Source: a virus. Taken from it: a DNA stretch of 64,000 nucleotides. Below the pieces are notes generated by a model. It was given only the letters and a program-made list of their open reading frames with translations, did no database searches and was not told the DNA's origin. Positions 23,074 through 46,035 of this stretch are shown here, in pieces. Numbering within the stretch: position 1 is the stretch's first letter; the number at the start of each line of letters is the position of its first letter. Both the position numbers and the translations under genes were made by a program. The stretch covers positions 2,860 through 66,859 of the IMG/VR virus record IMGVR_UViG_3300037010_001386. The stretch is one strand, 5' to 3'.

Positions 23074-23334
23074 ATGAAACTTTTAATAGACGAAATAAAC
23101 AGAAAAGCAATGATAGAATTCAATCACGATGATTTTGTTATTATTCCATCAGATGACGAATCAAAGGGAGATTATGCTTTGGCGTGGAAAATAGATAGAA
23201 GTTATTCTGGTAAAGATTCAGATATTGGAAGTCCTGCTATTTATATTACAGAAGATGAAGCTAAAAAATTAAAGTCGATTTTAGATGGATTGGATTTGCC
23301 AGATTATTTTTACGAATATGAAAACAATAGATGA
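23074..23334 (+). CDS. Hypothetical protein
   Basis: 86-aa ORF between methyltransferases. Confidence 0.6.
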   Translation: MKLLIDEINRKAMIEFNHDDFVIIPSDDESKGDYALAWKIDRSYSGKDSDIGSPAIYITEDEAKKLKSILDGLDLPDYFYEYENNR

Positions 23335-25017: not shown

Positions 25018-25824
25018 ATGAAAAAAATATCAGTTATAATACCGTGTTTGGGATTATGGAATGAATATACAAAACAATGTATAGATAGTTTGTATTCTGA
25101 TAAAAATAAATTATCTATTGTTTTAATAGATAATAATAGCCAAGATGAAACTGCAATTGAATTTGCTAAATTAAAAGATACAGATAAGAAAGAATATCAT
25201 TATATTCATAACGATAATAATAATGGTTGTTCTTCTGCGTGGAATCAGGGAATAAAATATGATAAAGCAGATTATTATTTTGTTATAAATAATGATACTT
25301 TATTTAATAAATATGCAATAGATAACTTGGTTGATTATTTAGATTCTGCTGATAATACGATAGTTATGGCGACTTGTTGTGATATGAGAGATAGTATTAA
25401 ACCGCAAGAAATTATTAATTTAGAAAAAATAATTGGTATAGAAAATAAAGAATTGCCAGATTTTTCTGCGTTTATGATTAGTCAGAATTGTATAGATAAA
25501 GTTGGTTGGTTTGACGAGGGATTTTCTTATTTTGGAAAGGCTTATTTTGAGGATAATGATTTTGCGTTGCGTATTAAATTATCTAATTTATTAGCAATGA
25601 ATATTTCTGATGCTCCTTATTATCATTTTGGGTCAAAGACACAGAGTGTTGTTTCTGCTGGATTTGAGATAAATCATAAATACTTTAAATTGAAATGGGG
25701 CTGTGATACTGATTATGTAGGCTGTTATAAAAATCCATTTAATGATGTAAAAAATGATTTAAAATGGGTATGGCAAAATGAGACACAAGAAGCAAGAGAT
25801 AGTATATGCAAATTGTTGCATTAA
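25018..25824 (+). CDS. Glycosyltransferase family 2
   Basis: ISVIIP, IDNNSQD, AWNQG, NNDT, FDEGF, EDNDF. Confidence 0.88.
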   Translation: MKKISVIIPCLGLWNEYTKQCIDSLYSDKNKLSIVLIDNNSQDETAIEFAKLKDTDKKEYHYIHNDNNNGCSSAWNQGIKYDKADYYFVINNDTLFNKYAIDNLVDYLDSADNTIVMATCCDMRDSIKPQEIINLEKIIGIENKELPDFSAFMISQNCIDKVGWFDEGFSYFGKAYFEDNDFALRIKLSNLLAMNISDAPYYHFGSKTQSVVSAGFEINHKYFKLKWGCDTDYVGCYKNPFNDVKNDLKWVWQNETQEARDSICKLLH

Positions 25825-29438: not shown

Positions 29439-31925
29439 ATGAATTCTCAAAACGGGGATAATTTAAAAAAATTGGTTACTGGCAATGTTTTAATGGACGA
29501 ATACATACAGAAGTCAGATTCTGAACGCATAAGTCAAGAGCGTTCTTTTGCGTTTACTAAAAGGAAAAGATTGTCTTATTCAATAGAAAAGGGTCTTTCA
29601 AAGCCAGGACTTGTATCATACGATGTTTTACGCAGAATAGTTAGGTCTGTTCACGCAGCAAGAATATGCGTTAATGTTTTAAAAGATAAGGTTGCAAAAA
29701 CAAAGTGGGTCATACAACCTATTAATCCAAGAGAAAAAGTTGACCCAGAAAAAATAAAACAAGTTGAAAATTTGTTTAAGTATCCAAATCCATCAGAATC
29801 GTTTAGAACATTATTGGATAAGATAATGGAAGATTTGCTTTCTCTTGATACTGTTTTTATTGAAAAAGTTAGATATAATGATGGGACACTTGCTGGATTA
29901 TTTTATTGCGATGCGGCAACAATAAGACCAGTTTTTAATGAAAAAGGAGAACAAGATGTTATCGTTCCATTACCAGATAAAAATGGAGGAGTAAAGAAAT
30001 TACCAGTTTCTTATGTTCAAATAGAAAATGCAAGTCCTTATGGAGGTGCTACATCTGGTAACGTTGTAGCAGCATGGCCTAAAAAAGATATGGTTCATTT
30101 CAATATGCATCCACAGGGCAATATGGAAAATTTTGGATATGGACTTTCACCGATTGAAAGCGTGTTGGGCGTTATAACAAATATTTTAAATGCAGATAAT
30201 TACAATAGCACTTATTTTCAAGAAGGTGCATTCCCACCAGCTATTATACAATTAAAAGCAAATATTGACCCTCGTGAACTTGAAAATCTCAGAGAATATT
30301 TATATTCAGAACTTAATGGACAATTCCATAGACCAGCAGTATTTGCAGGAGATATGGATATGGATGTAAAAGATTTGAAAACATTGACGCAGAGAGATAT
30401 GCAGTTTATGGATTATATGACATTTATGTTAAAATTGCTTGCTGCGGCATTTGGTTTATCAGGACAGGATGTTGGATTATCTGGTGATATAAATAGCACA
30501 GATTCTAATGTTCAAAAAGATTTATCACAAGCAAAAGGATATGGTGCATTACTTACTTTATTACAAGAGGAATTTAATCAACAAATTATTTGGAAAGATT
30601 TTGGATATACAGATATAGAATTTGCGTGGATAAATCCAGACACAGAAGATCCAAAAGAAAATGTAGCTGTTTATGATACTTCGCTTAGAAATGGTTCGCT
30701 TACATTAAATGAAGTTAGGAAAAGTTTAGGAAAAGAACCTTATGGGGCTTGGGCTGATATTCCTATGGTTTTAGGTGCGATGGGATATACACCTATTATG
30801 CCAAAATCAGATGCTGCGAAACCAGAAGGAGAAGACGAGGAAGAAACTCATTCAGATTCTGATTTTGTGGGAATGGAAAAACCAATGAAAGAACAAGCGA
30901 TAGAAGATGATAGCAATTTAGAAAATACAACAACAGAAGAAATACATAAAAGTATTTTGACTCCAGATGGTTATGAAACTTATGTTGATGATCGTGGATA
31001 TGGACAGCCATTTATATTTTATAAGATTTTAACAGGAGAAGGATATGTTATTAAACCTCCTGTTGCAGTAAATTTAGATAGTCAAATAATGGAAGAAAAA
31101 TTGACACATAAATTGGCAGATGAAGGATTGAGAGTAAATCCTGTAACAAGAATGACATTGGCAGATATTGAAACAAAATTATTAACATCAGATACTTTAA
31201 GAAAGCAGTTTAACGATTATGTAGAAATGGCACCAGCTTACGATAGTAAAAAATGGTCAGCTACTTTTGGCAATAGCAGAAAGTATCCTTATTATTCTGT
31301 TAGTAAATTTATAGATGGAAGAAGTTTGAAAGATCCTTTACTTATAAAGGATATGCAAAGAGTTCCACAGGATTACAAACAAGCAATTAAAGAATTAGCT
31401 GATTTATGGTTAGCTGAAAAGAAATATGTTTTAGGCGATAGACGAGCAGACCAAGTATTATTTACTCCAGATAAACATATTATGGCATTTGATTTTCAAT
31501 TCGAGGGCAATAAAAACAGATGGAAGAGTACAAAGGATTCATACGCAAACGCACTGAAACCAATACCAGAACTTTATAATTTATTTATAGAATTGACAAA
31601 TCAGAACAAAGAGTCTGTTGTTAAAAAGATAAAGAATATATTTAAAAAAGATGCATTAGAAAGTCCTACTAATGAGTATTTTGCTTTCGGAACGCTTGTG
31701 AATGGCGATGTAAAGTTTAAGGAAAATGTAAAAAAAGTTTTTGACAAAAAATCAGAGGATATTTTAATCGATAATGGTTTTACAGAATTGAGTTTTATGT
31801 ATGATTTTAATACTGCTCAAAAGATTTTATCTGATTATGTAACAAAAAATCCAAAAGCATATGGTGGTATATTCATAAAAGAAGATGAGAGAGGGCTGAT
31901 GTATTGTATATACACTAAACAATAA
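29439..31925 (+). CDS. HK97-like portal protein with C-terminal kinase-like extension
   Basis: PNPSESFR, YGLSPIE, YFQEGAFP, DMQF, LTLNEVRKSLG; extra ~320 aa after residue 504. Confidence 0.88.
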   Translation: MNSQNGDNLKKLVTGNVLMDEYIQKSDSERISQERSFAFTKRKRLSYSIEKGLSKPGLVSYDVLRRIVRSVHAARICVNVLKDKVAKTKWVIQPINPREKVDPEKIKQVENLFKYPNPSESFRTLLDKIMEDLLSLDTVFIEKVRYNDGTLAGLFYCDAATIRPVFNEKGEQDVIVPLPDKNGGVKKLPVSYVQIENASPYGGATSGNVVAAWPKKDMVHFNMHPQGNMENFGYGLSPIESVLGVITNILNADNYNSTYFQEGAFPPAIIQLKANIDPRELENLREYLYSELNGQFHRPAVFAGDMDMDVKDLKTLTQRDMQFMDYMTFMLKLLAAAFGLSGQDVGLSGDINSTDSNVQKDLSQAKGYGALLTLLQEEFNQQIIWKDFGYTDIEFAWINPDTEDPKENVAVYDTSLRNGSLTLNEVRKSLGKEPYGAWADIPMVLGAMGYTPIMPKSDAAKPEGEDEEETHSDSDFVGMEKPMKEQAIEDDSNLENTTTEEIHKSILTPDGYETYVDDRGYGQPFIFYKILTGEGYVIKPPVAVNLDSQIMEEKLTHKLADEGLRVNPVTRMTLADIETKLLTSDTLRKQFNDYVEMAPAYDSKKWSATFGNSRKYPYYSVSKFIDGRSLKDPLLIKDMQRVPQDYKQAIKELADLWLAEKKYVLGDRRADQVLFTPDKHIMAFDFQFEGNKNRWKSTKDSYANALKPIPELYNLFIELTNQNKESVVKKIKNIFKKDALESPTNEYFAFGTLVNGDVKFKENVKKVFDKKSEDILIDNGFTELSFMYDFNTAQKILSDYVTKNPKAYGGIFIKEDERGLMYCIYTKQ

Positions 31926-32248: not shown

Positions 32249-34678
32249 ATGAAGATTAATCCTAATTATTGGATATTACAAGGTAATCAGTTAAAACCAT
32301 CTAATCCTAATTGGTCTGTTTGGGGTGAGGGTTCTGTTTTGTGGGGCTCTATAACTGGCACACTTTCTAATCAGACTGACCTACAATCAGCTCTCAATGG
32401 GCTTGTTCCTTACTCAGGAGCAAATAAGAACTTATCAATGGGAAATTATAATGTTTCTGCTCTGGGATTAACTTCTACTAATCTTACCGTTGATACAAGC
32501 ACTCTTTATGTAGATAGCGTCAATCATAGATTGGGGATTGGGACGACAAGTCCCGGTACGACGCTGCATGTCGTTGGAACTTTTCGCCTCGCAAGTAATG
32601 GTTCTAATTTTGTAAATATAACCAATTCTAATGTAGGAAGTGGTTCTATCTCAATACCAAATCTTGCTGGTGTTGATGTATTTGATGTATTAGGCACAGC
32701 TCAAACATTTACTGCCACAAAAACATTTTCAAATAGTACATATTCCGCACTTTTTACTGGTGGCAATGTCGGGATTGGAACAACAGCACCAAGAGCAAAT
32801 TTTGAAGTAGATGGATCAGTTTGGTTGAAAACACATTTAGCAGATGATGCGGAAACTCTTATTATTGAACCAAACACAAGTGCAAATGCTGTTCAATTAA
32901 GAACCTATGTGGCAGCTGGAAACATAATCATAGGTAACAACTCTAATAATGTTTTATTAGCTACGGGTTCTGGCAATGTGGGCATCGGAATGACATCGCC
33001 AACTTCTCAGCTTACTCAAAAATCTACTACTGCTTTACAAAGCGCTCCATTAGGTAGTCAATTATTATCAACATCTAACTGGACGACAACAGGTTGGACT
33101 GGTGATTTCGTTAACGGATTTACTCATACAACAGGAAATACGACAGCACTGACCAACACATTAGCGGCAACTTCTGGCAATTTATATCAAATCTCATTTA
33201 CGGTTACAAATAGAACTGCTGGTTCATTTACAATTAGTTTCGGAAGCGTAACATCAGGTAGTTATACAGCAACAAATGCGTGGGGAGTAAAAGCAACAGG
33301 AACAGGAACGCTATCTATTACACCAACTAGTGATTTCAATGGGACAATAGTAATAGGTATTCAACAAATTACAGGAATATATTCGCCTATTTATGCTATT
33401 CAAGATAACACTGGTGCTAATAATATTGAAATTAGAAGCAGTTTAAATTCGCTTAATAATCTATTTATTGGTAAAAACACTGGAGGTCATAATACGACTG
33501 GTTCCAGTAATACATTTATAGGAGCTAACTCAGGGGCATACAACACCACAGGAAACAACAACACAGCTAATGGATATGCTTCTTTCAACTCCAATACCAC
33601 AGGAGGATATAACACAGCAAATGGATATGGATCTCTCAACAACAACACAACAGGTAACTACAATACAGCTAATGGATTTTATTCCCTCTACTATAACACA
33701 ACAGGAAACTACAATACAGCAAATGGTGTAAGCACACTCCAAGCCAACACTACGGGGGTATATAATACAGCCGATGGTATGAACGCACTTTCCTCAAACA
33801 CTACGGGAAGCAGTAATACAGCTAATGGGGCAAGTGCATTATCATCCAACAACACAGGGTCTAATAATGTAGCCAATGGAGTAAGCGCTCTCTATTCCAA
33901 CACCACAGGCACTAGCAATACAGCTAATGGATATTATTCTCTAAATTCCAATACTACAGGTAACTATAATACCGCATTAGGTTATTATTCTGGTCGTTTT
34001 ATTGCTGATGGAGCAACAGGCAACGCTACATCAACTAATTCTATATATTTAGGAGCAAATACAAAAGCATTAGCCAGTGGAGATACAAATGAAATAGTAA
34101 TAGGTTATAACGCAACAGGGTTAGGTTCAAATACGGCTGTTTTAGGGAATAGTTCAATTGTTACCACTGCTTTATATGGAAATGTCGGCGTTGGAACGAC
34201 AACGCCACATGACAAATTAGATGTAAACGGAGTAATAAGTTCAGGATACACTGCTGGTAATGGTGAAATTAGAATGTATCAGAATAATAATCAAGATGGT
34301 ATTTATGTTGCGTTAAAAACCGATACTACGAATAAAAAAAGTGGATTATTTAGAAGTAATACCAATTTTTTCAATTATTATGACACAAATACTGGTGATA
34401 CTGTATTAGATGCTACTTTTGCTAGTAGTTCTGACATCTTTAAGATACAAGGTGTTGAAAAAATGAGAATAGCAAATAACGGCAATGTCGGTATTGGAAC
34501 TACTACACCAAATTACCAATGTCATATCAATGGCACATTAGGATTTACACCTGGAAGCTCCGTGACACCAGCTAATAATGGTGATATAGTTATAGAAGCA
34601 ACGAGCAACACATCAGTTACTATAAAATTAAAAGGTTCTGATGGTGTTGTAAGAAGTGTTGCACTTACACTATCATAA
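32249..34678 (+). CDS. Fibre/adhesin-like virion protein
   Basis: Repeated GNVGIGTT motifs and about a dozen 14-aa NTTGxxNTAxGxx(S/A)L repeats. Confidence 0.75.
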   Translation: MKINPNYWILQGNQLKPSNPNWSVWGEGSVLWGSITGTLSNQTDLQSALNGLVPYSGANKNLSMGNYNVSALGLTSTNLTVDTSTLYVDSVNHRLGIGTTSPGTTLHVVGTFRLASNGSNFVNITNSNVGSGSISIPNLAGVDVFDVLGTAQTFTATKTFSNSTYSALFTGGNVGIGTTAPRANFEVDGSVWLKTHLADDAETLIIEPNTSANAVQLRTYVAAGNIIIGNNSNNVLLATGSGNVGIGMTSPTSQLTQKSTTALQSAPLGSQLLSTSNWTTTGWTGDFVNGFTHTTGNTTALTNTLAATSGNLYQISFTVTNRTAGSFTISFGSVTSGSYTATNAWGVKATGTGTLSITPTSDFNGTIVIGIQQITGIYSPIYAIQDNTGANNIEIRSSLNSLNNLFIGKNTGGHNTTGSSNTFIGANSGAYNTTGNNNTANGYASFNSNTTGGYNTANGYGSLNNNTTGNYNTANGFYSLYYNTTGNYNTANGVSTLQANTTGVYNTADGMNALSSNTTGSSNTANGASALSSNNTGSNNVANGVSALYSNTTGTSNTANGYYSLNSNTTGNYNTALGYYSGRFIADGATGNATSTNSIYLGANTKALASGDTNEIVIGYNATGLGSNTAVLGNSSIVTTALYGNVGVGTTTPHDKLDVNGVISSGYTAGNGEIRMYQNNNQDGIYVALKTDTTNKKSGLFRSNTNFFNYYDTNTGDTVLDATFASSSDIFKIQGVEKMRIANNGNVGIGTTTPNYQCHINGTLGFTPGSSVTPANNGDIVIEATSNTSVTIKLKGSDGVVRSVALTLS

Positions 34679-35258: not shown

Positions 35259-35498
35259 ATGAAAAAGTTAATGTCGGGCGAAACAAGTATAACAATTCAG
35301 GTATTACTGACAATTATCAGTGGAATTGCGATTGGAATATTTACTGCGATTAGTTATGTGAATTCACAAATATCCCCAGTTGCAGCAGAAACACAAGCAA
35401 ACTCACAAGCAATCGCAGGAATGCAAAGCGATATATCTTGGGTTAAACAAGCACTTCAAGCTCAAGGATTTTCTCCTAAAGGTCAACAAATCAATTAA
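35259..35498 (+). CDS. Single-TM coiled-coil protein
   Basis: Hydrophobic helix then heptad-like region; promoter at 35226-35246. Confidence 0.6.
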   Translation: MKKLMSGETSITIQVLLTIISGIAIGIFTAISYVNSQISPVAAETQANSQAIAGMQSDISWVKQALQAQGFSPKGQQIN

Positions 35499-35502
35499 AT
35501 AA

Positions 35503-36021
35503 ATGTTTGAAATAATTTGGAAATCGTTACAGGTAAATAAAGACACGTTAGATGAAGTTATTGAAGAGATTAATCGTGAGATTAGTCGTATTAGTGCAAA
35601 TCGTATTCCATATTTAACTGGTCGTGCATTAAAAAAGGAACTCGTTCGTGTTCAAGAATTAAGAAATCAACGAGATATTATTAAAAAGAAATTTGGAACA
35701 GCTACTCCGAAAAATTCTGCAGATAATGAAATTGATGAAACTGATAAAGATATGGGTGTAGAAAATGCTGGAAATATACCAGTATCTTTGTTAGCTCGTC
35801 AAGACCTTTCAGAAACTGAAAAATCTGAAGATTATGTAACTGGTGATTATATACATTTATATAATAAACGAGCAAAAATTAAATGGAGGGATGGACATGG
35901 AAACTATCAAGTAGAGTTTTTAGATGGAAAGGATAAGGGAAAAACAATGATAGTGCCAGAAAACGAGATAGACAAAATGATTTCAAAAAATATAGATTTA
36001 ATAATAAAAAAATATGAATAA
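35503..36021 (+). CDS. Putative internal head protein with C-terminal SH3-like segment
   Basis: IWKS, TDKD and TEKS linkers; C-terminal ISKNIDLIIKKYE shared with the next protein. Confidence 0.55.
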   Translation: MFEIIWKSLQVNKDTLDEVIEEINREISRISANRIPYLTGRALKKELVRVQELRNQRDIIKKKFGTATPKNSADNEIDETDKDMGVENAGNIPVSLLARQDLSETEKSEDYVTGDYIHLYNKRAKIKWRDGHGNYQVEFLDGKDKGKTMIVPENEIDKMISKNIDLIIKKYE

Positions 36022-39000
36022 ATTATTCAAAATGTTGTTAAGAAAAACAAGTGACGGCACAGAAGAAGAGGATGCGTTAAAAAGTGCTGATTTAACTTGT
36101 TGGGTTCAAAATGCTAATGATTTATATGAACAAGGTAAATCATATAATTATATTATATCAGATTTACAAACGAAAGGAGTATCGCCAAGTGATATTGCAA
36201 TAGTAATGGATTTATTCCAGCAAATGGTTGGTGACGAAGGAATTGTAAAATCTAATGTAGAAAAGATTATAAGACACGAAGGAAATGAATGGGTTTTATA
36301 TTCTCACGAAGGAAAGGTATTAGGAAGACATCCTACAAAGGAAAGTGCAGAAGGACAAGAGGCGGCAGTTCAAGCAAATAAATCACAGGTTAAAAAAGGA
36401 TTAAGTTATGACGAATGGGAAGAAAAAGTTATTGAAGAATTAGCAAAACTTTTAGATGCACCTATTTCAGATATACAAGGTATTATTATGTTGCAATCTT
36501 TCATTTTAGACAGAGAATGGGCAAAAGATACTGACCCTAAAAAAGTTGCTCAACTTATTGAAAGAGCTTCAATTGTTCATAGGTCACAAAAAGAATTAAG
36601 CCGTGACGAATGGGAAGAAAAAGTTATTGAAGAAGTAGCAAAATTTTTTGGTATATCTATTTCAGATGCACAAGGTATTGTTATGATACAACCTTTCATT
36701 TTACAGAAAGAATGGGTAAAAGATACTGATCCTGAAAAAGTCGCTCAACTTATTGAAAGAGCTGCGACAATTCATAGGTCACAAGATGAAACATCTACAG
36801 AAAAAGATATAGTTGATTATCTTGATAAAAGTTTTTCAGATGATAGTGTAATAACAGTCGCTGTTGTAAAAGAGAAAATTCGTAAAGCATTTCCAGAGAT
36901 TAAATCAGATTGGTCAGTTGGAGTATTGGCTAGTTTATGGATTGATAGACAGAGATTGAATAAAGCGTTTCCATCGTTATCATCTAATATTACAAAAAAT
37001 CTTACTGATGTAAGAGTTGCAGAAAAACTTTTGACAGAGGAAGAATCTATTAAAACCTATTTGCATTTAGATGGCGATGATTTGTCAGGGAATCCGCAAT
37101 ATATTAAGGAAGTAAGTAAACTTAGTCGTTTTGGCGTAGGTCCAGATGTTATGAGAATATTAGAGGATGCAGGTCATCATTCATTGGTTAAAGTGCTTAT
37201 GAGTTTAGGTTCTCCAAGCCCTGCTATTCAGAAATCATCATTTAACGTTACAAAGAATGCTAATGATGATGAAAGAGTTGCAGAAAGATTAATGGCAGAT
37301 GAAACAAGAATTAATAATGATTTACATATACAAGGCGGAGACCGTTCAAATGATCCACAATATATTGATAGAATAAAGAGAATTAATCGTTCGGGAATTA
37401 ATCCAAATGTTATGGCAATATTGGAGGACGAGAATTATCATTCATTGGTTTCAGTGCTTATGAGTTTAGGAGCACCAAGACCTGCAAATAAAGTTCGCAG
37501 AGGAGGAATAGATGATGATGAACTATGGGGAAAATCTCAAGATGTTACCAATAAATCAATTGAAAAAAGTAGAATTCCAGAACGAACCATTATGATTGCT
37601 TCGCTAGATGAAATGGATTATATACAAATGGGAGTTAAACAAGAAACTCCAACTAGTTGGATTGATTCCAATGGGAATGTCTGGCCAAAAAGCGAATACA
37701 AGTTTGTTGAAGAATTGAAACCTGTAAAAAAGGATGATACTACCAATAAATCAATTCCCAATCGAACAGAACAAGCAAAAGTATTAATAAATGTTGACCA
37801 CGATCTTCGGGTTAAACTTGGATTTTTTGATGGAAAAAGCATGAATGATCCTAGGAACTGGAATGAATACAAACAAGAATTAAGTGAAAGATTTGTTGGA
37901 AATGTTTCTCAAGAAACTTTATCAGATTTAAAGGATAGTGGTTATAATTCGTTAGTATTGGCATTGAAAGAATTAGGTAGAATAAGTAAATCTCAAGATG
38001 TTACCAATAAAGGAATTTATAATAAAACAGAACAAGCACAAGTATTAATAAATCTTGACTACTATCTTCGGATTAAATTTGGATTTTTCGAGGGAAAAAG
38101 CATTAAGGATCCCAAAATCTGGAATGAATACAAACGAAAATTAGGTGAAATGTTTGTTGGAAATGTTTCTCAAGAAACTTTATCAGACTTAAAAGATAAT
38201 GGTCGTGATTGGTTAATATTGGCGTTGAAAGAATTGGGTAGAATAAGTAAATCTCAAGATAATGTTACCAATAATACAGAAAAGGATTTAAAGACATCGC
38301 TTGGCGTTCAAAGACATAACAATAGAATGGATAATATTTGGAATGATGCAAAAGAACTTGAGCGTAAGCGTGTTGCGGCAGGTGAAGAACCAAATCCAAG
38401 TCTTACCAGCCCAGAAGAAGCTGCAAAGTACGGATGGGTGCCAGTTAAAATAGATGGATATAATAGGTATCAGAGAAAAGCACAGAAATCACAGGATAAT
38501 GTTACTAATAAATCATTTGAAAAAGGATCTAGATATACCATTGTTAGAAGAACTTTTGAAGCAGAAAAATATCCAAAAGGTAGTGCAGAGAGAGCAAAAT
38601 TAAATGAAAATCCTTTAACTAGTGAATATGCACATTCATATAAATATGCAGTAGTTGATGGAAGTGGAGAATCTATGGAGGAGTTTTATAGTAAAACAGA
38701 TGCTCAGAATTGGATTGATGCTCATACAAAAAATACTACTAATAAATCATTTGAAAATCCAACAGCAGAAGGAGAACGATTAATGATTATTGATAATGAA
38801 ATTTGGGATAAATTTGGATTTAGAAGCGGAAGCGATGTAGATAAGAACTGGAATAAATATAAACAGGCAGTAAATGAAAAAGTTCATGGAAAAGTTTCTA
38901 AAGAAACTTGGGAAGATTTGGAAGATAATAATTATCACTCAATGATAAAAGCATTGAATGAATTGGGCAAGTTAGAAAAATCACAAATTCAAAAAGGAAG

Positions 39001-41365
39001 TCTTTCGTATGGCGTTGAAGGAGAAATACAATTAGAGGCTGAAAATAATTTTGGACCATATTCAACAAGACGAGAGGTTGAAAATAATGTTAAATCTGCA
39101 ATAAGGGATATGTTTAATTGGGTCAAAGATAAAGATGACTTAAAAAAACTTAAAGAAGTTTCAAATAATCCATCTAAAATAAAAGATATTGTTGATTCAA
39201 TTTGCGAAGATTCGGATATTACAAAAACAGAGAAATCTCAAGTAGAAAAAGCAGATGATTCAAATTCTCTTAGAGCAGTAAATGCACGAAAACTTTATAC
39301 AGCACAACAGATTCATTCAAAATATGCAGGGAAGTTTGTAGATTTCTATCCTTATTATCATGATTATTGGAATGATAAAACTAATCGGTATGAAACTGTT
39401 TATGAGGTAAGAGGAGTAAGTAGCAAGGAGAGAGAGAATTATCGACCAGCAGAAGACATTGGTAAGTCTATAGAAAAAGCTCGAACAATTGGTGCTCATT
39501 GGAAAGGAGAGATAAAAAGGATTATGGCACAGGGCAAGAAGCAGGGTATTGAAAATATTAATCAGATGAAAGATTTTGTTTATGACAAACTTCCACAGGA
39601 AGCATTTGACACATGGGAAAGTGCATACTCGGAAATCGGTAATTTAGTTCATGAATATTGGGATAGTATTCCAGATTCTCGACCAAGTTATATGAAAGCA
39701 CAGGGCGATCATTTTTATTTTGGCGAGCGGGTTGATTTCATATTTGGTGATAATAACAGAGCGACAGGAAAAATTATTAGTCTTTGGAGGTCACGAGATA
39801 GACAAGCACTTGCAATTAAAAGCGATGAAACTGGTAAGATATATGAGTATTGGTCTGATGATCCTAAAGTGATTAAGCTCAAGAAATCTCAATTAAAAAA
39901 AGGAACTTTTGATTCTGATATAAAAGAAGAAGAGGAAGGTTCAGAACATTATGAAGACCTTGCAAATAAATATCCAGAATTTAGTTCAGAGTTTAATGAA
40001 ATGGCTCAACAGGAATTGGGACATAAAAAGAACCTTGAAGAAATGAAGAATAAATTAGATGCGACAGAAACTACAAAGTCAAGACAAGATATTAACGATT
40101 ATATAGATGATTATTATCGTGGCGGAGATCATCATTCTGAAGCAGAAAAAATAACAAATATTCTTTTTGATAATCCGAGTCTAGAAAAGGATTTAGAAAA
40201 AATAGGGAATGAATTTGATGTCAGCCATTATGTTGAGAGTTATTTAGATAGAACCTATAAAAAGAAATCTTCTTCTGAAATTAGAAAAACAACATGGGAC
40301 GTGACTGTTGAATATGCGGATGCAAAAGATGGATATAAAAGAAAGAAACAGACATTTAGATTAAATATAGCAGGAGATCCTGTATATGAATGGAGAGACG
40401 CATTGAGCATGAAAGTTGGACCATTAGAATTTGCACGTTTTACAGATACACATGTCGTTAAATATGATATGCCTTTTTTTGGAACGAGAAAATCAATTTC
40501 GAATGATGAGCAAGATGATACTACAGAAAAAGCAACAATGTATACTGGATACAAATGTAAATTATGTGGAGAAGAGTTTTTTCCATATACAGACCAACAG
40601 TTATCATCGCATCTTAAGAATAAACATCCACAACAATATAAAGAACTTCAAGATGCTGAAGATAATTACGAAGATTTAATGTTATGGGATTTCTTTACAA
40701 AGTTTAAGAGACTTCTGAAATCACAACCATTAAAAGTAACAGATGCAGAGATCCGAGATTTTTTAGGACAGAATAGTGATATTCATGATGTTGAAAAACT
40801 AATTAATATGGTTATGCAGAAATTTAATTTTCATCGTAGTGGAGCCATTGATCAGGTTTGGGACTTTATAGAAGATGTTATTCCTCCAGAGAGACGACAT
40901 CTTTATAAATCTCAATTAGTATCAAAAGCAATAGATGGTTTTATTAACAAGTATGAAAAAAGTGCTGTTACAGACGAAATAGCTCGACAATTACGAACTC
41001 TTGGATGGAAAGGACCAATTGTATCTACTGGTAGTAATTCAGTTAAAGTTAATAATGGATTAAAAGGTGTTACTATAACTTATAACGAAGGAAGTGATTT
41101 ATATGATTTAGTTCCTTATGACGCAACTAACGGATTGAAATATGGTAGTCGTATTAGCGATATATATGCAGATGATTTGGTATCAACTATTGACAGATTA
41201 ATATCACAGACGAGTAAATCACAAGTATCAAAAACAATAGATAATATTTTTGATAAATACGAAACAATACAAAAGCCAGGAGCATCGCATTCTATAACCA
41301 ATAAGGGAATATTAGAATCAAGGATTGATAGAAATGGTAATATAAAGCATAAATGGGAAGATTAA
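36014..41365 (+). CDS. 1783-aa modular polyprotein, putative capsid-internal cargo
   Basis: Many 40-90 aa modules, several internally duplicated, separated by K|S-type linkers; directly upstream of prohead protease. Confidence 0.75.
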   Translation: MNKLFKMLLRKTSDGTEEEDALKSADLTCWVQNANDLYEQGKSYNYIISDLQTKGVSPSDIAIVMDLFQQMVGDEGIVKSNVEKIIRHEGNEWVLYSHEGKVLGRHPTKESAEGQEAAVQANKSQVKKGLSYDEWEEKVIEELAKLLDAPISDIQGIIMLQSFILDREWAKDTDPKKVAQLIERASIVHRSQKELSRDEWEEKVIEEVAKFFGISISDAQGIVMIQPFILQKEWVKDTDPEKVAQLIERAATIHRSQDETSTEKDIVDYLDKSFSDDSVITVAVVKEKIRKAFPEIKSDWSVGVLASLWIDRQRLNKAFPSLSSNITKNLTDVRVAEKLLTEEESIKTYLHLDGDDLSGNPQYIKEVSKLSRFGVGPDVMRILEDAGHHSLVKVLMSLGSPSPAIQKSSFNVTKNANDDERVAERLMADETRINNDLHIQGGDRSNDPQYIDRIKRINRSGINPNVMAILEDENYHSLVSVLMSLGAPRPANKVRRGGIDDDELWGKSQDVTNKSIEKSRIPERTIMIASLDEMDYIQMGVKQETPTSWIDSNGNVWPKSEYKFVEELKPVKKDDTTNKSIPNRTEQAKVLINVDHDLRVKLGFFDGKSMNDPRNWNEYKQELSERFVGNVSQETLSDLKDSGYNSLVLALKELGRISKSQDVTNKGIYNKTEQAQVLINLDYYLRIKFGFFEGKSIKDPKIWNEYKRKLGEMFVGNVSQETLSDLKDNGRDWLILALKELGRISKSQDNVTNNTEKDLKTSLGVQRHNNRMDNIWNDAKELERKRVAAGEEPNPSLTSPEEAAKYGWVPVKIDGYNRYQRKAQKSQDNVTNKSFEKGSRYTIVRRTFEAEKYPKGSAERAKLNENPLTSEYAHSYKYAVVDGSGESMEEFYSKTDAQNWIDAHTKNTTNKSFENPTAEGERLMIIDNEIWDKFGFRSGSDVDKNWNKYKQAVNEKVHGKVSKETWEDLEDNNYHSMIKALNELGKLEKSQIQKGSLSYGVEGEIQLEAENNFGPYSTRREVENNVKSAIRDMFNWVKDKDDLKKLKEVSNNPSKIKDIVDSICEDSDITKTEKSQVEKADDSNSLRAVNARKLYTAQQIHSKYAGKFVDFYPYYHDYWNDKTNRYETVYEVRGVSSKERENYRPAEDIGKSIEKARTIGAHWKGEIKRIMAQGKKQGIENINQMKDFVYDKLPQEAFDTWESAYSEIGNLVHEYWDSIPDSRPSYMKAQGDHFYFGERVDFIFGDNNRATGKIISLWRSRDRQALAIKSDETGKIYEYWSDDPKVIKLKKSQLKKGTFDSDIKEEEEGSEHYEDLANKYPEFSSEFNEMAQQELGHKKNLEEMKNKLDATETTKSRQDINDYIDDYYRGGDHHSEAEKITNILFDNPSLEKDLEKIGNEFDVSHYVESYLDRTYKKKSSSEIRKTTWDVTVEYADAKDGYKRKKQTFRLNIAGDPVYEWRDALSMKVGPLEFARFTDTHVVKYDMPFFGTRKSISNDEQDDTTEKATMYTGYKCKLCGEEFFPYTDQQLSSHLKNKHPQQYKELQDAEDNYEDLMLWDFFTKFKRLLKSQPLKVTDAEIRDFLGQNSDIHDVEKLINMVMQKFNFHRSGAIDQVWDFIEDVIPPERRHLYKSQLVSKAIDGFINKYEKSAVTDEIARQLRTLGWKGPIVSTGSNSVKVNNGLKGVTITYNEGSDLYDLVPYDATNGLKYGSRISDIYADDLVSTIDRLISQTSKSQVSKTIDNIFDKYETIQKPGASHSITNKGILESRIDRNGNIKHKWED

Positions 41366-41399
41366 AAAAAATAACATAATTTTAGTATAATTAAAGTAT

Positions 41400-43481
41400 A
41401 TGAACAAGATAATCGCAACGTTTAATGGAAATACACCATTTAAGTTTTTTATAGAAAAAGCTGAATCATTTAATCCAGAAGATTATAATGGCGAATGGGT
41501 TATTTATGGATGTGCTTCTTCTACAAACACAGACCACGATCAAGAAAAAATGGCTCCTCAAGCATTGGAGCAAATGGCAGAGATAATCAACAAGCAACCA
41601 ATACCGCTTAGATATGAACATCAAAAAGATGAAAATTCTATTATAGGAAAAGTATTTGAAGCAAGTGTTGATGCTCGTAATAAATTGATGATTAAAGCAC
41701 AACTTGATAAAACAAATCCTATTGCAAAAGTATTATGGGACGGAATTATATCAGGTTCAAAAATGGGATTTTCAGTAGGAGGAAGAGTAGTTCAAGCGGC
41801 GAGAGAATTAGTGGAGGGAATAGGTAAAAAGATTAGAACATTTTATAAAGTAGATGTCGATGAAGTTTCAGTAACTCCTCGACCATCTAATTTTGATGCG
41901 TGGATGGTAAATCATTCTTTCGCTAAATCAATATCGGAGGCAAGCACATATAGAGATAATTTTAGTTTCTATGGTGCATTTTTAAGAGACAATCCCGGAT
42001 TAGATTATTTGGCAGTGATTGAAAAATCAATACCAGATAAAGATTGGATAAAGGTCGATAGTAACATACAAAATAAAAAAATGAAAATAATTAAAACAAG
42101 CAGAACTTCAACGGAAACAGAAGAAACAACACCATTTGTTGAAACAACAGAAACAGATTCATATGGTAAAACATCTCCAGATCTAATGGCAGAAGCAAGA
42201 AAATTAATGAAAATTAATGATGAAATTTATAATAAACTTGGAATTAAAAGTGAAAAAGATTTAGATGATAACTGGGATAAATATCAACAAGCAGTAAGTA
42301 GTAAAGTTAATGGAAAAATTTCTAAAGAAGTAATGAAATATCTATTAGATAATCGTTATTATGCAATAGTAAGTGCATTATTTCATTTGAATAAGATAGA
42401 AAAATCTCAGTCTCAGGAAGATGAAACATCAGAAACGACAGAAGAAAAAGAAAATTCTACCATTGATGAATTAATAACTTCTGATAAAAGTATTCCAGAA
42501 ACATCTGATACTGAAACGACAACAAAAGAAACATCAGATACTGAAACAACAACAAAGGAAGAAGATGAAGAAACTGTAACCTCAAAATCGTATGTTGATG
42601 AAGTAGTTGGAAATCTTAAAAAGGAACTTGATTCCAAGTTCAGCGATGTACTTGGCGTTTTAAAAGCCATTAAGAAATCTATTGATACTACCGACACAAC
42701 AGACGAAACAACTGAAAAAGATGAATCAGAAACAACATCTGAAACAGAAAAAGATATAGATGATGAATCTGAAACAACTGAAAAAGATGAAACTGAAACA
42801 ACAAATGAAACAACAAAAGGTTTTACAACTTCTACAACAGAAAAAGATGTAGACGATGAAACAACTTCTACAACAGAAAAAGATGTAGACGATGAAACAA
42901 CATCTACAACATCTGAAGCTAAAAAAGCATTTAGCAGAAAATCATCTTCAACAGAATCTACAACAACAAAAGCAGAAGAAACAATTTCTGAAACTTTTGA
43001 AACAACCGATTCTGACACAACAGATTCTGATGAAACAACAACATCTGATACAACTGATTCAACTACAAATGATTATGGTGCTGAATATGTAATTCCAGAT
43101 GTAAATGAAGCAATGAAATCTGCAAGAGCGATGGGAATAAATCCATTAGATGCTTTTGTATATGCTTTAACAAAGCATATCAAACAATTCGAGAATAAAA
43201 TAATGGAAAAGAATAATACAAGAATTGTTGGATTAGCAAATGAAGTTGCTACTATAATTAGAAACGATAAGACCATTCAAAAATCTATCAAAGGATGGAT
43301 GAATGAACCAATCGCTCCTAAATCAGTAGCGTTTGGAGTTCCTTACATTAAAGAAAGAAACGGAGATTTATTTAGATTAACACCTATTAATAAATCAGAA
43401 GACGAAGAGTTAAGGAAATCATTTGTTGGTAAGAGTTTCAAAGAACTTTATCAAGCAAAATATTCAACTACATTGGAATAA
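41400..43481 (+). CDS. HK97-family prohead protease fused to T/E/S/D-rich scaffold region
   Basis: IYGCASS..DHDQE, LRYEH, IGKV, MGFSVGG, DEVSVTPRPSN. Confidence 0.88.
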   Translation: MNKIIATFNGNTPFKFFIEKAESFNPEDYNGEWVIYGCASSTNTDHDQEKMAPQALEQMAEIINKQPIPLRYEHQKDENSIIGKVFEASVDARNKLMIKAQLDKTNPIAKVLWDGIISGSKMGFSVGGRVVQAARELVEGIGKKIRTFYKVDVDEVSVTPRPSNFDAWMVNHSFAKSISEASTYRDNFSFYGAFLRDNPGLDYLAVIEKSIPDKDWIKVDSNIQNKKMKIIKTSRTSTETEETTPFVETTETDSYGKTSPDLMAEARKLMKINDEIYNKLGIKSEKDLDDNWDKYQQAVSSKVNGKISKEVMKYLLDNRYYAIVSALFHLNKIEKSQSQEDETSETTEEKENSTIDELITSDKSIPETSDTETTTKETSDTETTTKEEDEETVTSKSYVDEVVGNLKKELDSKFSDVLGVLKAIKKSIDTTDTTDETTEKDESETTSETEKDIDDESETTEKDETETTNETTKGFTTSTTEKDVDDETTSTTEKDVDDETTSTTSEAKKAFSRKSSSTESTTTKAEETISETFETTDSDTTDSDETTTSDTTDSTTNDYGAEYVIPDVNEAMKSARAMGINPLDAFVYALTKHIKQFENKIMEKNNTRIVGLANEVATIIRNDKTIQKSIKGWMNEPIAPKSVAFGVPYIKERNGDLFRLTPINKSEDEELRKSFVGKSFKELYQAKYSTTLE
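42081..43481 (+). CDS. Probable nested in-frame scaffolding protein (466 aa)
   Basis: AAAGGTCG at 42050-42057 plus A-rich leader before in-frame ATG (Met228). Confidence 0.55.
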   Translation: MKIIKTSRTSTETEETTPFVETTETDSYGKTSPDLMAEARKLMKINDEIYNKLGIKSEKDLDDNWDKYQQAVSSKVNGKISKEVMKYLLDNRYYAIVSALFHLNKIEKSQSQEDETSETTEEKENSTIDELITSDKSIPETSDTETTTKETSDTETTTKEEDEETVTSKSYVDEVVGNLKKELDSKFSDVLGVLKAIKKSIDTTDTTDETTEKDESETTSETEKDIDDESETTEKDETETTNETTKGFTTSTTEKDVDDETTSTTEKDVDDETTSTTSEAKKAFSRKSSSTESTTTKAEETISETFETTDSDTTDSDETTTSDTTDSTTNDYGAEYVIPDVNEAMKSARAMGINPLDAFVYALTKHIKQFENKIMEKNNTRIVGLANEVATIIRNDKTIQKSIKGWMNEPIAPKSVAFGVPYIKERNGDLFRLTPINKSEDEELRKSFVGKSFKELYQAKYSTTLE

Positions 43482-43694
43482 AAAAAATAATGGTAGGGAA
43501 TTGGAACTCCCGAACCTAAAAGCCTATCTGAGACCAACGTCTATGAAGAAGGAAGCCTCTAAAAATGGCAAATTCTATTGGTAATGTTTTTATGGTCGAT
43601 ACATTTAAGTTCGCTTGTTTATATCTACATTAAGTTGTTATATAAATGAGATAAGGACAAAGCCAATTGTTATTAGTACATTTACAACAAAATT

Positions 43695-44738
43695 ATGAAA
43701 GAAATTAGTGCTTTAGAAAAAGCATTAGGAAGGATAGAAAAGGATGTTAATGTTTCGTTCGCTGGACCAATTCCATCAGGATTATTGGCACGTCAAGATT
43801 TGGAGTCGACATTAGTCGTGCTCTCAGATCGTCTTACGCCATTTCGTGATAGAGTTAGTCGTGAACAAGGACAGGGCAATGCCCATCTTTGGAATCAAAG
43901 AACAAGACTTGACACCATTTCTAAAGGACCTGCAGGACTGGTAAATTTGTTTTATGCTGATGGAAACATTCCAAATCAGAATGACCCAGCATATGTTCAA
44001 AAATCAGCTGCATACAAATACCTTGGTCAGACTGCGGTAATTACTGGCCCGATGATTGCATCAGGTAGGTCTTACATTGATATGGAGGCGGAAGTTGCCG
44101 AGGCAGCTTTACGTGCCGTTATACAATGTGAGGAATGGGCTGATTTCAAAGCATCATCGTCTGTCAATTCATTGGCATATGATGGTTTTGATGCTCAGTT
44201 AACAACTGCGGTCATTGATAATACAGGAAATACTTTAACATCTACAGGACTTACAATCCCTGCATTCGACTCAGTCATAAAGGCTACTCGTAATCAGGGC
44301 AATACTAAAGTAGATGCTATCTATCTCTCGTATGGTCTTCAAACATTAGTAAATCAGATAATCTCAGGACAAGCTCGTTACTTCGTTCAACCTGACGGTG
44401 GACGAGGAACGACTTTGGCAGCTGGTGACAATGTCGTCAGCTATATGAGTCCTTTGGGAAGTGTTCCTATTATAGGAGATTTCTTCTGCAATCCGACTTT
44501 GCCATATCCTTATGATGCGGCTGGTTCGTCTGATGTTTCAGGTAGTCCACTTTCTGATGTTTACTTCTTAAGACACGATTCGCTTGGAAATGAGATGGTT
44601 GATTTGATGCCAATAGGACGCACAGAACTTGCAAAAATTGCAGACTCAGTTCGTTTCTATATTAACGAATACACAGTTTTGGCTTTGAAAGCTGAACCTT
44701 GGAATGGCATTTTATTGAACGTCGCAGATCCTGCATAA
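43695..44738 (+). CDS. Major capsid protein
   Basis: 347 aa after protease/scaffold; LARQDLE, EEWADF, AYDGF, FYINEYTVLALKA; biased codon usage. Confidence 0.85.
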   Translation: MKEISALEKALGRIEKDVNVSFAGPIPSGLLARQDLESTLVVLSDRLTPFRDRVSREQGQGNAHLWNQRTRLDTISKGPAGLVNLFYADGNIPNQNDPAYVQKSAAYKYLGQTAVITGPMIASGRSYIDMEAEVAEAALRAVIQCEEWADFKASSSVNSLAYDGFDAQLTTAVIDNTGNTLTSTGLTIPAFDSVIKATRNQGNTKVDAIYLSYGLQTLVNQIISGQARYFVQPDGGRGTTLAAGDNVVSYMSPLGSVPIIGDFFCNPTLPYPYDAAGSSDVSGSPLSDVYFLRHDSLGNEMVDLMPIGRTELAKIADSVRFYINEYTVLALKAEPWNGILLNVADPA

Positions 44739-44835: not shown

Positions 44836-46035
44836 ATGATAGTAAAAATAATAGATAAAAGAGTAAGTGCTATTTTATGGAAAAATAAATATCTGCCAAC
44901 AAATGTAGATATAGATTTATCGGTAAGTGATATATTGCATTTCTCTAGAAGGAATCCAATAGAATTTAATATACCAACAATTGATTATAATCCTGAAACA
45001 TGGAAGAATAAACAATTTGTTTTAATAGGGGACGCTGATTCTACCAGTGGTTTTGGTAATTGCACGACTAATTTAATAACGCAATCTATTAAAAATAAAT
45101 ACGATATTAGATGGATTGGAAAACAATACGAAGTTCCACAATTAACGAGATATAATTATCAAGATATATCAACTGATATGGGTGTGGTATTCCACGAACA
45201 ACCAAAACAAGAATGGCTAACTTTACCATTCCAGAAAAAACTTGCAATTGTTCCATTTGAAACAACTCGTATTCCAAAATCTTGGGTTTATAAAATAAAC
45301 TCACTTGATGCAATAATGGTTCCTTGTAGTCAGAATGTGCAAATGATGAAAGATTCTGGTGTAACTATTCCTATTGAAGAAATAAGATGGGGTGTGAATA
45401 CAAAAGAATTTCCATTATTAAAAAGAAATAATAAGTATTTTACATTTGGACAAATGGGTGCTTTATCATTAAGAAAAGGAACTGATACTTTAATTAGTGC
45501 TTTCAAGAAAGCATTTCCTATAGAAGAATATCCAAATGTTAGATTATTATTAAAAACATCAAACGATGGTTTTTTATTTGAGACAAAAGACGATAGAATA
45601 AAAGTGCAAATAGGAAAATTCAATAAAAAAGAATTATTAGATAATTTCTTACAGCAAATAGATTGTTTTGTATTTCCTACAAGAGGTGAAGGTGCTGGAC
45701 TTCCTCCATTAGAAGCAATGGCTACTGGATTGCCAGTTATCTGCACAGATTGGTCTGGTCCAAAAGATTATCTTCCAATTGATTATACATATTGGCTTAA
45801 ATATAAAATGGTTCCTGCTACAGATTTTAGCAAGAAAATATATAAAGAACCTTGCGGAGATTGGGCTGAACCAGATGAAGAGCATTTAATAGAACTTATG
45901 CGATATTGCTATAATAATCAAGATGAAGCAAAAAAGATGGGAGAACTTGGCTCTAAATGGGTTCATAAAAATATGACATGGGATAAAAATATACATTTAT
46001 TCTTTGATGTTCTTAATAAGTATTTTAAAAAATAG
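44836..46035 (+). CDS. GT-B (GT4-like) glycosyltransferase
   Basis: PFETTRIP, RKGTDTLI, PTRGEGAGLPPLEAMATGLPVI. Confidence 0.88.
   Translation: MIVKIIDKRVSAILWKNKYLPTNVDIDLSVSDILHFSRRNPIEFNIPTIDYNPETWKNKQFVLIGDADSTSGFGNCTTNLITQSIKNKYDIRWIGKQYEVPQLTRYNYQDISTDMGVVFHEQPKQEWLTLPFQKKLAIVPFETTRIPKSWVYKINSLDAIMVPCSQNVQMMKDSGVTIPIEEIRWGVNTKEFPLLKRNNKYFTFGQMGALSLRKGTDTLISAFKKAFPIEEYPNVRLLLKTSNDGFLFETKDDRIKVQIGKFNKKELLDNFLQQIDCFVFPTRGEGAGLPPLEAMATGLPVICTDWSGPKDYLPIDYTYWLKYKMVPATDFSKKIYKEPCGDWAEPDEEHLIELMRYCYNNQDEAKKMGELGSKWVHKNMTWDKNIHLFFDVLNKYFKK

Follow-up and report, generated by a model that had tools for sequence, protein, structure and literature searches.

A giant modular gene beside a viral prohead protease gene as a candidate polyprotein of capsid cargo

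A giant open reading frame in the head-assembly block

We analyzed a 64,000-nt stretch of viral DNA (hereafter the window), which comprises most of an IMG/VR virus record of 66,859 bp that is rated complete (IMGVR_UViG_3300037010_001386, positions 2,860 to 66,859). The subject of this study is a gene on its + strand that runs through 1783 codons without an internal stop (36014-41365), and whose product, the giant protein, can be read as a string of small modules joined by a repeated lysine-containing linker. The gene lies in a head-assembly block in which the portal gene is followed by a gene for an 809-amino-acid (aa) fibre-like protein, two small open reading frames (ORFs), a 172-aa ORF, the giant gene, a gene for a prohead protease fused to a scaffold (the protease-scaffold) and the major capsid protein gene. 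A gap of 35 nt separates the stop codon of the giant gene from the protease-scaffold gene. The genes of the block on which our analysis relies are listed below, an arrow in a motif standing for a proposed cleavage point.

29439-31925, + strand: portal protein, 828 aa, start of the head-assembly block (PF04860, E-value 1.6e-35; phrog_12, E 1.2e-50)
35503-36021, + strand: 172-aa small family member, N-terminal M-F-E-I-I-W-K↓S; its stop overlaps the start of the giant gene (ATGAATAA)
36014-41365, + strand: giant protein, candidate polyprotein, 1783 aa, 205 kDa, isoelectric point 5.6, ~23 modules
41400-43481, + strand: prohead protease (aa ~1-209) fused to an acidic Thr/Glu-rich scaffold, 693 aa
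43695-44738, + strand: major capsid protein, 347 aa (phrog_752, E 1.6e-15)

The base composition is even throughout the giant-gene region, with a GC content of ~30%. Contigs of three public sequencing runs from three studies (X1-X3, microbial mat and sediment; the source sample may be X1) together cover positions 35400-43600 with 0 differences in the pieces listed, and a single X1 unitig of 4697 nt covers 38158-42854, that is, from aa ~716 of the giant protein into the protease-scaffold gene. The DNA of the window is real, and an assembly artefact is excluded. The portal and protease distantly resemble their Herelleviridae counterparts (23-29% identity). Herelleviridae were considered as a model for the locus and rejected, since Bacillus phage Goe3 has its protease gene immediately behind the portal gene, without an intervening cargo gene.

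The giant protein is an array of small modules

A recurring linker with the core K-S-Q-x-x-K-[G/A] divides the giant protein into ~23 modules, each 39-136 aa long. The predicted module products have masses of 4-16 kDa, mostly 7-10 kDa, and both acidic and basic ones are present. An initial annotation, made from the sequence without database searches, had described a beads-on-a-string layout of about 20 modules with duplicated families, and both descriptions hold: three boundary tests agree on the layout (next section), family A has 2 copies (aa 129-191 and 192-264, 71% identity, E 3e-31), and family B has 5 (aa 331-407, 414-507, 580-659, 666-746 and 912-989, pairwise E 1e-4 to 2.5e-41). No full-length relative of 980-3121 aa was found in a set of 5.8 billion proteins, and searches for shorter proteins, with the whole giant protein and with its aa 1200-1783, gave only P0002, a 709-aa protein of another metagenome that shares its N-terminus and, in unchanged order, 10 of its modules. 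The segments of the giant gene that are referred to below are as follows.

36014-36082, + strand: first 23 aa, bearing the signature L-F-K-M-L-L-R-K and closing with K23↓S; proposed targeting propeptide that would be removed
36266-36382, + strand: M2, aa 85-123, flanked by K79↓S..K84 and K123↓S..K128↓G (phrog_3684, E 5.8e-7)
36398-36805, + strand: duplicate modules of family A; P0002 has one copy
37016-38251, + strand: four family-B modules and the unique M8 (aa 519-579); the entire region is missing from P0002
38285-38746, + strand: M11 (aa 758-825) and M12 (aa 838-911), with the linker K825↓S-Q-D-N-V-T-N-K833↓S-F-E-K837↓G
38747-38980, + strand: M13, fifth family-B module, aa 912-989, predicted compact five-helix domain
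38996-39466, + strand: M14 (aa 995-1074) and M15 (aa 1080-1151), bounded by K989↓S..K994↓G, K1074↓S..K1079↓A and K1151↓S..K1155↓A
39902-40078, + strand: M17, aa 1297-1355, putative two-helix half ferritin-like unit, E...E-x-x-H
40532-40720, + strand: M20, aa 1507-1569, C-x2-C...H-x4-H pattern

The reading of M17 as a half ferritin-like unit is supported by a profile of 7 copies, which matches diiron ferritin-like proteins in the PDB at E 4e-5 to 2e-3 (aldehyde decarbonylase, 4.3e-5; Dps-like, 5.4e-5; sulerythrin, 2e-3); the Pfam Rubrerythrin match (E 0.0024) is below the cut-off. The residues E10, E38 and H41 are invariant in the 7 copies, and the E...E-x-x-H ligand motif lies on the helix pair. 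With its 59 aa and one motif pair, M17 is not a full four-helix bundle carrying two motifs per chain, and it would have to dimerise to form one. The C2H2 finger that had been assigned to M20 is upheld in its ligand pattern, kept in 4 copies (giant M20, P0002 and, twice, P0005), but not by Pfam, where the zinc-finger scores are below the cut-off (zf-met2, E 0.073; zf-C2H2_4, E 0.34).

A Pfam-A scan of the giant protein at E up to 1 returned 9 weak families, all below the curated cut-offs, and no MuF, peptidase or LPD family; the Phage_Mu_F domain is likewise absent from the 172-aa and 809-aa ORFs at the stricter limit of E 0.01. Pfam and PHROGs gave no family of known function for the modules other than M17 and M20, and no function for the standalone homologues scanned. 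Foldseek searches against the PDB with the B module and with M11+M12 returned no match at E <=0.001. A wide VIA-align search with M11+M12 had a best Z of 4.9 and none >=5, which does not imply novelty of the folds, and a search of the ESM Atlas with M15 gave no usable match.

Linkers coincide with domain boundaries

The module boundaries were examined by three tests, none of which uses the motif, namely, the termini of standalone homologues, the insertions and deletions (indels) relative to P0002, and the confidence of AlphaFold models. The boundaries of M1, M5, M8, M18/19 and M21-23 rest on the motif and partly on the P0002 indels. An exhaustive HMMER search with aa 1-1200 detected 274 proteins at E <=0.001, of which 150 are listed; among the matches listed, many are standalone proteins of 50-140 aa, each covering one module. 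We mapped the natural termini of the 109 homologues of <=200 aa among the matches listed onto the giant protein, and found a median distance to a Lys-Ser (KS) site of 6 aa for N-ends (n=75) and 2 aa for C-ends (n=57), vs 15 aa for random positions. Since homologues within one module are not independent, per-module medians were also taken, which are 76/126 for M2, 758/819 for M11, 838/906.5 for M12, 911/989 for B, 995/1075 for M14 and 1081/1153 for M15. Thus, in these 6 modules (12 boundaries) every per-module median lies 0-6 aa from a linker Lys.

All differences in module content between P0002 and the giant protein break at linkers: one A copy, aa 331-904, M15, the second half of M16, M18-M19 and M21-M22 are lacking in P0002, and both breakpoints of the M15 loss are at '..EKA'. 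The AlphaFold models agree with this partition. Modelled from 21 family-B sequences, the B module is a compact five-helix domain with a mean predicted local distance difference test score (pLDDT) of 86.9, while the linker at aa 905-912 scores <50. For M11+M12, modelled from 69 sequences, the cores have a pLDDT of 89-96 and aa 810-839 one of 50-54, with a predicted template modelling score of 0.47, so that these models depict two domains on a flexible tether. Overall, the modelled cores are confident (pLDDT 89-97), the score falls to 54 or less across both linkers tested, and the three tests together identify the linkers as domain boundaries.

The linker is specific to one lineage of modular proteins

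The closest multi-module relatives of the giant protein, P0002-P0006, P0008, P0010 and P0015, are 329-1663 aa long and carry different subsets of modules in differing orders, each module being ~40-55% identical to its counterpart. The pattern KS[QRIM]x2-3K is enriched in P0002, P0003, P0004, P0005, P0008, P0010 and P0015, and occurs once, which is not significant, in P0006. It has 0 occurrences in P0009, P0013, P0060 and P0081, where B or M14 modules sit in unrelated contexts. Since the motif is missing where B and M14 sit in other contexts, the linker is lineage-specific and not part of the modules themselves.

Modules of families A or B also sit in large polyvalent-type proteins, namely, P0060 (1452 aa) and a 1591-aa ORF of locus L053, and a profile of a subset of B modules detected 2 distant loci in large proteins of this type. 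M2-like modules are present in 43 IMG/VR loci, either standalone (44-57 aa) or fused. Among 10 long ORFs with an M2 fusion that were scanned, 2 have an XkdF-type prohead protease domain (one strong, E 1e-31, one weak), 1 a phage scaffold domain (weak, below the cut-off), 1 a nucleotidyltransferase domain, 1 a LigD phosphoesterase domain and 1 a DUF6313 match below the cut-off, and 4 lack any match. In L040:6882-8108 and L041:6396-8108 the M2-like module, of 45 aa, is C-terminal in proteins with nucleotidyltransferase and LigD 3'-phosphoesterase domains; an M2-like module might serve as a portable capsid-association tag for enzymes.

Searches of INPHARED phages by tblastn with the giant protein and the capsid protein gave no relatives, and no locus encoding the giant protein, P0002 or P0005 was found in IMG/VR or in JGI metagenome contigs. 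A further small unit with Cys residues (W/F-D-x-C-[IV]...N-x-[FY]-A-[IV]-C-x-A), for which a Pfam family was not found, occurs in P0002 (aa 650-709), L004:7760-8278, L055:288-950, P0003, P0005 and P0006, and is absent from the giant protein itself.

The Lys-Ser motif is shared with the protease-scaffold protein

Expected motif counts were computed from protein composition, and the giant protein was compared with 2000 shuffles. It has 32 KS dipeptides vs 14.6 expected, a count reached by 0 of the 2000 shuffles, together with 11 KSQ (0.58 expected) and 12 occurrences of the paired pattern KS[QIFS]x1-5K[GASTDN] (0.56 expected). The remaining window ORFs, pooled, have 60 KS vs 74.8 expected, and the protease-scaffold is the one other enriched protein (14 vs 6.6, p ~0.003). 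Accordingly, of the wider motif h-x-K↓(S/A/G/D/T/N) proposed in the initial annotation, the Ser form stands, whereas Lys before the other residues is at expectation in the giant protein: K[GA] 20 vs 18.6, KD 14 vs 14.9, KT 9 vs 8.5 and KN 7 vs 10.6. Its occurrence throughout the scaffold is likewise borne out, but that in the portal is not (KS 6 vs 4.5, p 0.30). The codon of the linker Ser is TCA or TCT in 20 of 20 cases vs 4 of 12 at the other KS sites of the giant gene, and these codons account for 67% of Ser after Lys elsewhere in the window; such a bias fits growth of the array via recombination at linker DNA.

The N-terminal 170 aa of the 693-aa protein match phrog_1028, 'head maturation protease' (E 1.3e-6), and by tblastn the protease domain matches annotated Herelleviridae prohead proteases with 27-29% identity over 80-89% of the domain. 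Relatives of the locus were found via the capsid protein (62-73% identity), one more lying on a contig in an archaeal metagenome-assembled genome (MAG); their protease-scaffolds are 34-36% identical to that of the window. In four such relatives the protease-scaffold has 50 KS vs 25.3 expected, each one being enriched, whereas no enrichment is seen in their capsid proteins (2 vs 3.3), portals (9 vs 11.5) or proteins of the fibre-like type (2 vs 3.1). The KS sites at K209, which directly follows the protease domain, K396, K641 and K673 are invariant in the 4 aligned protease-scaffolds. His46 and Ser125 of the protease domain are invariant too. Lying N-terminal in the capsid protein and inside the scaffold are three further features.

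43695-43742, + strand: proposed capsid propeptide, 16 aa, ending at K16 (alignment of 6 sequences)
43758-43805, + strand: capsid N-arm motif, aa 22-37
42189-42404, + strand: family-B module in the scaffold, aa 264-335, bounded by K↓T and I-E-K↓S-Q

As for the capsid leader, in which the initial annotation had also seen the motif, the capsid protein has only 1 KS, yet K16 is invariant in 6 of 6 aligned sequences, with D, S, A or T as the next residue. In the N-arm that follows, L30, L31, R33, Q34, D35, L36 and E37 are invariant in the same 6 sequences. Taken together, we infer from these patterns that K-S is the signature of a protease cutting after Lys, preferably before Ser. The HK97 protease reportedly cuts at Lys↓Ser.

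The B module in the scaffold is 50% identical to M13 (E 1.9e-21), and is found in this phage only among the scaffolds aligned, those of three relatives having a gap at its position. Either B modules associate and thereby recruit the giant protein, or the scaffold is a second carrier. A complex prediction for the scaffold B module with M13 gave a score of 0.01 and, having been run without controls, counts neither for nor against binding.

A small upstream gene carries a copy of the capsid N-arm

The 172-aa ORF directly upstream of the giant gene contains the following segment.

35749-35814, + strand: copy of the capsid N-arm (capsid aa 17-37, 43743-43805), at aa 83-104 of the 172-aa protein and directly preceded by a Lys

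This copy comprises ~20 residues of the mature N-arm of the capsid protein, and follows a Lys just as the capsid N-arm follows K16. Within the window, the 172-aa ORF shares the LLARQDL motif with the capsid protein alone and the N-terminal signature with the giant protein alone. In all relatives with upstream sequence (L003/L006, L004, L007 and L055), a gene of the same family encoding 145-220 aa lies directly upstream of the protease-scaffold gene. Its products have the N-terminal signature M-x-x-F-K-x-F-W-K, one small module, which is either a half-ferritin or the Cys-containing W-D-x-C...A-[IV]-C unit, and the capsid N-arm copy G-P-[IV]-P-x-S-L-L-A-x-Q-D-L-E directly after a Lys. In P0003, P0006, P0008 and P0015 the N-arm copy lies within the polyprotein itself; the two genes of the window together thus correspond to one protein elsewhere.

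The signature, as F[KNTQ]x[FLHYM][WL] within the first 16 aa, is present in 14 of the 151 retrieved proteins, including P0002-P0006 and P0008, and ends in K↓S or K↓G. In P0006 it occurs twice internally, both times after K-S, which suggests that the arrays arose by fusing genes each of which started with the signature. A complete relative of 61,811 bp (G001) has no match to the giant protein, and the difference in size between it and the window record, ~5 kb, is the length of the giant gene. These comparisons indicate that the giant gene is a lineage-specific expansion of a conserved small-gene locus. The scaffold proteins of P22 and 80alpha are known to bind capsid N-arms; we therefore propose, by analogy, that cargo is attached to the scaffold through the N-arm copy, as a possible scaffold-binding address tag.

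We tried and rejected a -1 frameshift that would join the 172-aa ORF to the giant gene, as it runs into a stop. Within 36006-36021, an A7 run lies just before the overlapping stop and start (ATGAATAA), where a +1 shift would fuse both proteins, an event without support. In L006:7711-8244 and L003:1636-2169, a gene for a DUF559/Vsr-like endonuclease (E 7.5e-14) lies between the small cargo and protease-scaffold genes, and looks like a homing-endonuclease-type insertion. The contig L055 (CAZJZM010000044.1, 7.4 kb), with cargo, protease-scaffold and capsid genes, has been assigned to a 'Candidatus Micrarchaeota' MAG, which is either a binning error or a hint of the host.

A proposed protease-released capsid cargo and its alternatives

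The best explanation, to which we assign a probability of roughly 0.6, is that the giant protein is a capsid-internal polyprotein of an uncultured tailed phage, from which the prohead protease releases small proteins, most of them of 7-10 kDa. In this model the giant protein would be made late, alongside the 172-aa protein with which its gene shares the overlapping start and stop, and would enter the procapsid core by its N-terminal F-K-x-F-W-K-type propeptide, by the family-B module common to the scaffold, or by both, while the 172-aa neighbour would enter by its capsid N-arm copy. The scaffold-fused protease would then cut after the linker lysines, at K↓S and at K↓G/A 4-7 residues on, freeing ~23 folded proteins and leaving short spacers to be discarded. 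The freed proteins, of the size of T4 IPI* (76 aa), would remain in the head with the DNA and probably exit with it at infection. The array itself would have grown by insertion and duplication of modules at the linkers.

The initial annotation had proposed just such a protease-released cargo, with anti-defence or takeover effectors as its content. The modular structure, the location in the head operon and the KS motif and module family common to the protease-scaffold are circumstantial evidence for the release of cargo, but not one module matched an effector or anti-defence family in Pfam or PHROGs, or in the folds of B, M11 and M12. The effector idea rests only on the analogy with T4 internal proteins.

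Several further observations weigh against our preferred explanation. The identification of the protease relies on PHROGs (E 1.3e-6) and on weak tblastn matches (E 2e-5 to 8e-3), while Pfam (the window and 4 relatives) and a PDB profile search gave no match. Its K↓S preference is read from enrichment and conservation only, and the second linker site, K[GA], has no statistical support of its own. Given the uniform linker Ser codons, part of the recurrence of the motif reflects common descent of linker DNA and not independent selection. The giant protein has no N-arm copy and its own N-terminal signature is degenerate, lacking the Trp; 137 of the 151 retrieved proteins, most of them standalone homologues, have no N-terminal signature. 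Among 4 standalone M2 loci examined, 2 are beside portal or capsid genes and 1 is between ribonucleotide reductase genes.

The most serious alternative, though an unlikely one in our judgment, is that the giant protein is an uncleaved or barely cleaved polyvalent-type protein, whose K-S-Q-x-x-K-G stretches are flexible connectors spread by recombination rather than protease sites. The codon uniformity just described and the P0002 indels, all at linkers, fit recombination at a repeated DNA junction, and some polyvalent proteins, such as the N4 virion RNA polymerase, are packaged or transferred unprocessed, according to excerpts from PMC5512222. However, connectors of this kind leave unexplained the ~2-fold, positionally invariant K-S enrichment in the non-homologous scaffolds of five phages, and why this enrichment skips the other structural proteins of those phages. 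They also do not account for the persistence of the linker in relatives whose modules have diverged so far, or for the match of linker lysines with the natural ends of standalone homologues.

It is rather improbable that the giant protein is an auxiliary scaffold or core protein, cut by the protease into fragments that leave the capsid during maturation without delivery to the host. A module and the K-S enrichment are indeed common to the giant protein and the scaffold, the complete relative G001 does without the giant gene, and propeptides and scaffold fragments generally exit heads, according to excerpts from PMC10052503. On the other hand, the predicted products are confidently folded domains of 7-10 kDa in the models and not short peptides, and the modules equal independent small proteins of other phages, which is hard to square with architectural filler; in T4, IPI*, with 76 residues, is retained and injected (excerpts from PMC3012670).

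We give little credence to a late cytoplasmic polyprotein that is never packaged, from which a phage or host protease would yield small accessory proteins in a fixed ratio: its gene stands in the head operon, with an overlap to the head-locus gene on its upstream side and a gap of 35 nt to the protease gene, and in the window the family signature and the capsid N-arm copy are restricted to this locus, both of which argue against it, although the lack of the N-terminal signature in most standalone homologues and the one standalone M2 amid nucleotide-metabolism genes would suit it. The chance that repeats were mis-joined into an artificial long ORF is negligible, since, even with internal repeats at 71% amino-acid identity and unitigs that break near repeats, contigs of three runs tile the region with 0 differences, the 4697-nt unitig reaches the scaffold gene, the GC content is uniform, and the independent P0002 has the same architecture.

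Other genes in the window

The 809-aa protein (32249-34678) is poor in Lys, contains many repeats of the type N-T-[AG]-x-G-Y-x-[AS], and matches tail-spike and virion structural PHROGs. A fibre-like gene between the portal gene and the head cargo locus is oddly placed; the version in relatives has 1109 aa. Upstream of the portal block are neighbouring genes for a C5-cytosine and an N6/N4 DNA methyltransferase (21798-23069 and 23285-24628, E 8e-51 and 9e-41) and a glycosyltransferase gene (25018-25824). Another glycosyltransferase gene (44836-46035) lies between those for the capsid protein and the head-tail adaptor (phrog_2170, E 1e-37). The large terminase gene (124-2331, - strand; phrog_38, E 8e-63) is on the opposite strand, ~27 kb from the portal gene, and the N-terminal part of its product has weak matches to helicase and DnaC-like families.

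Comparison with known systems

Processing of internal or ejection proteins by the prohead protease is established in T4 and phiKZ-like phages (excerpts from PMC10052503 and PMC3012670). In T4, the internal proteins IPI, IPII, IPIII and Alt are small, have a short N-terminal signal that brings them into the scaffold core, and are trimmed by the prohead protease, retained with the DNA and injected; as described in excerpts from PMC3012670, a conserved capsid targeting sequence precedes a diverse, fast-evolving set of proteins, and mature IPI* is a 76-residue injected restriction inhibitor. The modules here are IPI*-sized, and the giant gene lies between the portal block and the protease-scaffold gene, a location among head genes as for the T4-type internal proteins. 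However, the T4 proteins are encoded by separate genes, each with its own signal, whereas here ~23 units stand in one ORF with cleavage-type linkers. The T4 prohead protease cuts after Glu; the protease of the window is of a different family and would cut after Lys. The T4 internal proteins have no sequence similarity to the giant protein, whose packaging and injection are predicted.

Many internal head proteins of phiKZ, 201phi2-1 and SPN3US are cut at a short consensus, sometimes at several sites, and SPN3US head proteins provide an example of prohead protease cleavage at several motif sites (excerpts from PMC10052503). In these giant phages, as described there, cleavage strips long N-terminal propeptides from single large proteins, whereas we propose here an array of small domains; the genome, 67 kb, is not that of a jumbo phage.

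Polyvalent proteins are multi-domain proteins that travel with phage or plasmid DNA and combine 2-15 shuffled domains per chain; their delivery with DNA is predicted and their processing sometimes proposed (excerpts from Iyer et al. 2017, PMC5512222). The giant protein, with ~23 modules, shares such an organization. The enzymatic, LPD, MuF and zincin-peptidase domains that are hallmarks of the class were not found in it by Pfam, and the supplementary lists of PMC5512222 might name some of the modules. The modules here are tiny, and processing would be carried out by a separate prohead protease at a regular linker, as against the built-in peptidase of polyvalent proteins. Since the hallmark domains of the class were sought in Pfam, which we take to include the LPD families, and not found, we file the giant protein, on its sequence features, among processed internal head proteins and not in the polyvalent class.

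Picornavirus-like and retroviral Gag-Pol polyproteins are encoded in one ORF with sites for their own maturation protease, and are made in fixed stoichiometry. They share with the giant protein the placement of units in one ORF, but belong to RNA and reverse-transcribing viruses and supply essential structural or replication proteins. A full-text literature search found no tailed-phage gene that strings ~20 small proteins on a regular linker common to the scaffold. If the protease does free the modules, this would be a polyprotein strategy for capsid cargo that is new for tailed phages, in which one gene and one targeting event would deliver ~23 small proteins in a fixed ratio, from an array able to gain or lose units through recombination at linkers. 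The linker motif, the N-terminal signature and the N-arm copy could then mark cargo in uncultured phages from sequence, and the modules, which are common also as standalone ORFs, would be candidates for host takeover or counter-defence in the first minutes of infection.

Encapsulins have an HK97-fold shell and load cargo by a short targeting peptide, which offers an analogy only, the targeting elements being unrelated. Encapsulated ferritins have the two-helix half-ferritin architecture with E...ExxH, as does M17, whose profile matched the encapsulin cargo chain EncB (7s5k) at E 0.36 only. Possible routes of recruitment run via the N-arm copy and via the B module common to the scaffold and the giant protein; these parts could serve to load foreign proteins into HK97-type shells. 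A bolder generalization, which we regard as doubtful, is a recombination-driven cargo-loading system of an HK97-type phage lineage, in which any small protein captured between protease-site linkers would be packaged by two portable tags, the N-terminal F-K-x-F-W-K propeptide and the scaffold-binding copy of the capsid N-arm, and released by the protease for injection. If true, it would represent a DNA-phage counterpart of both viral polyproteins and encapsulin loading, half-ferritin cargo included.

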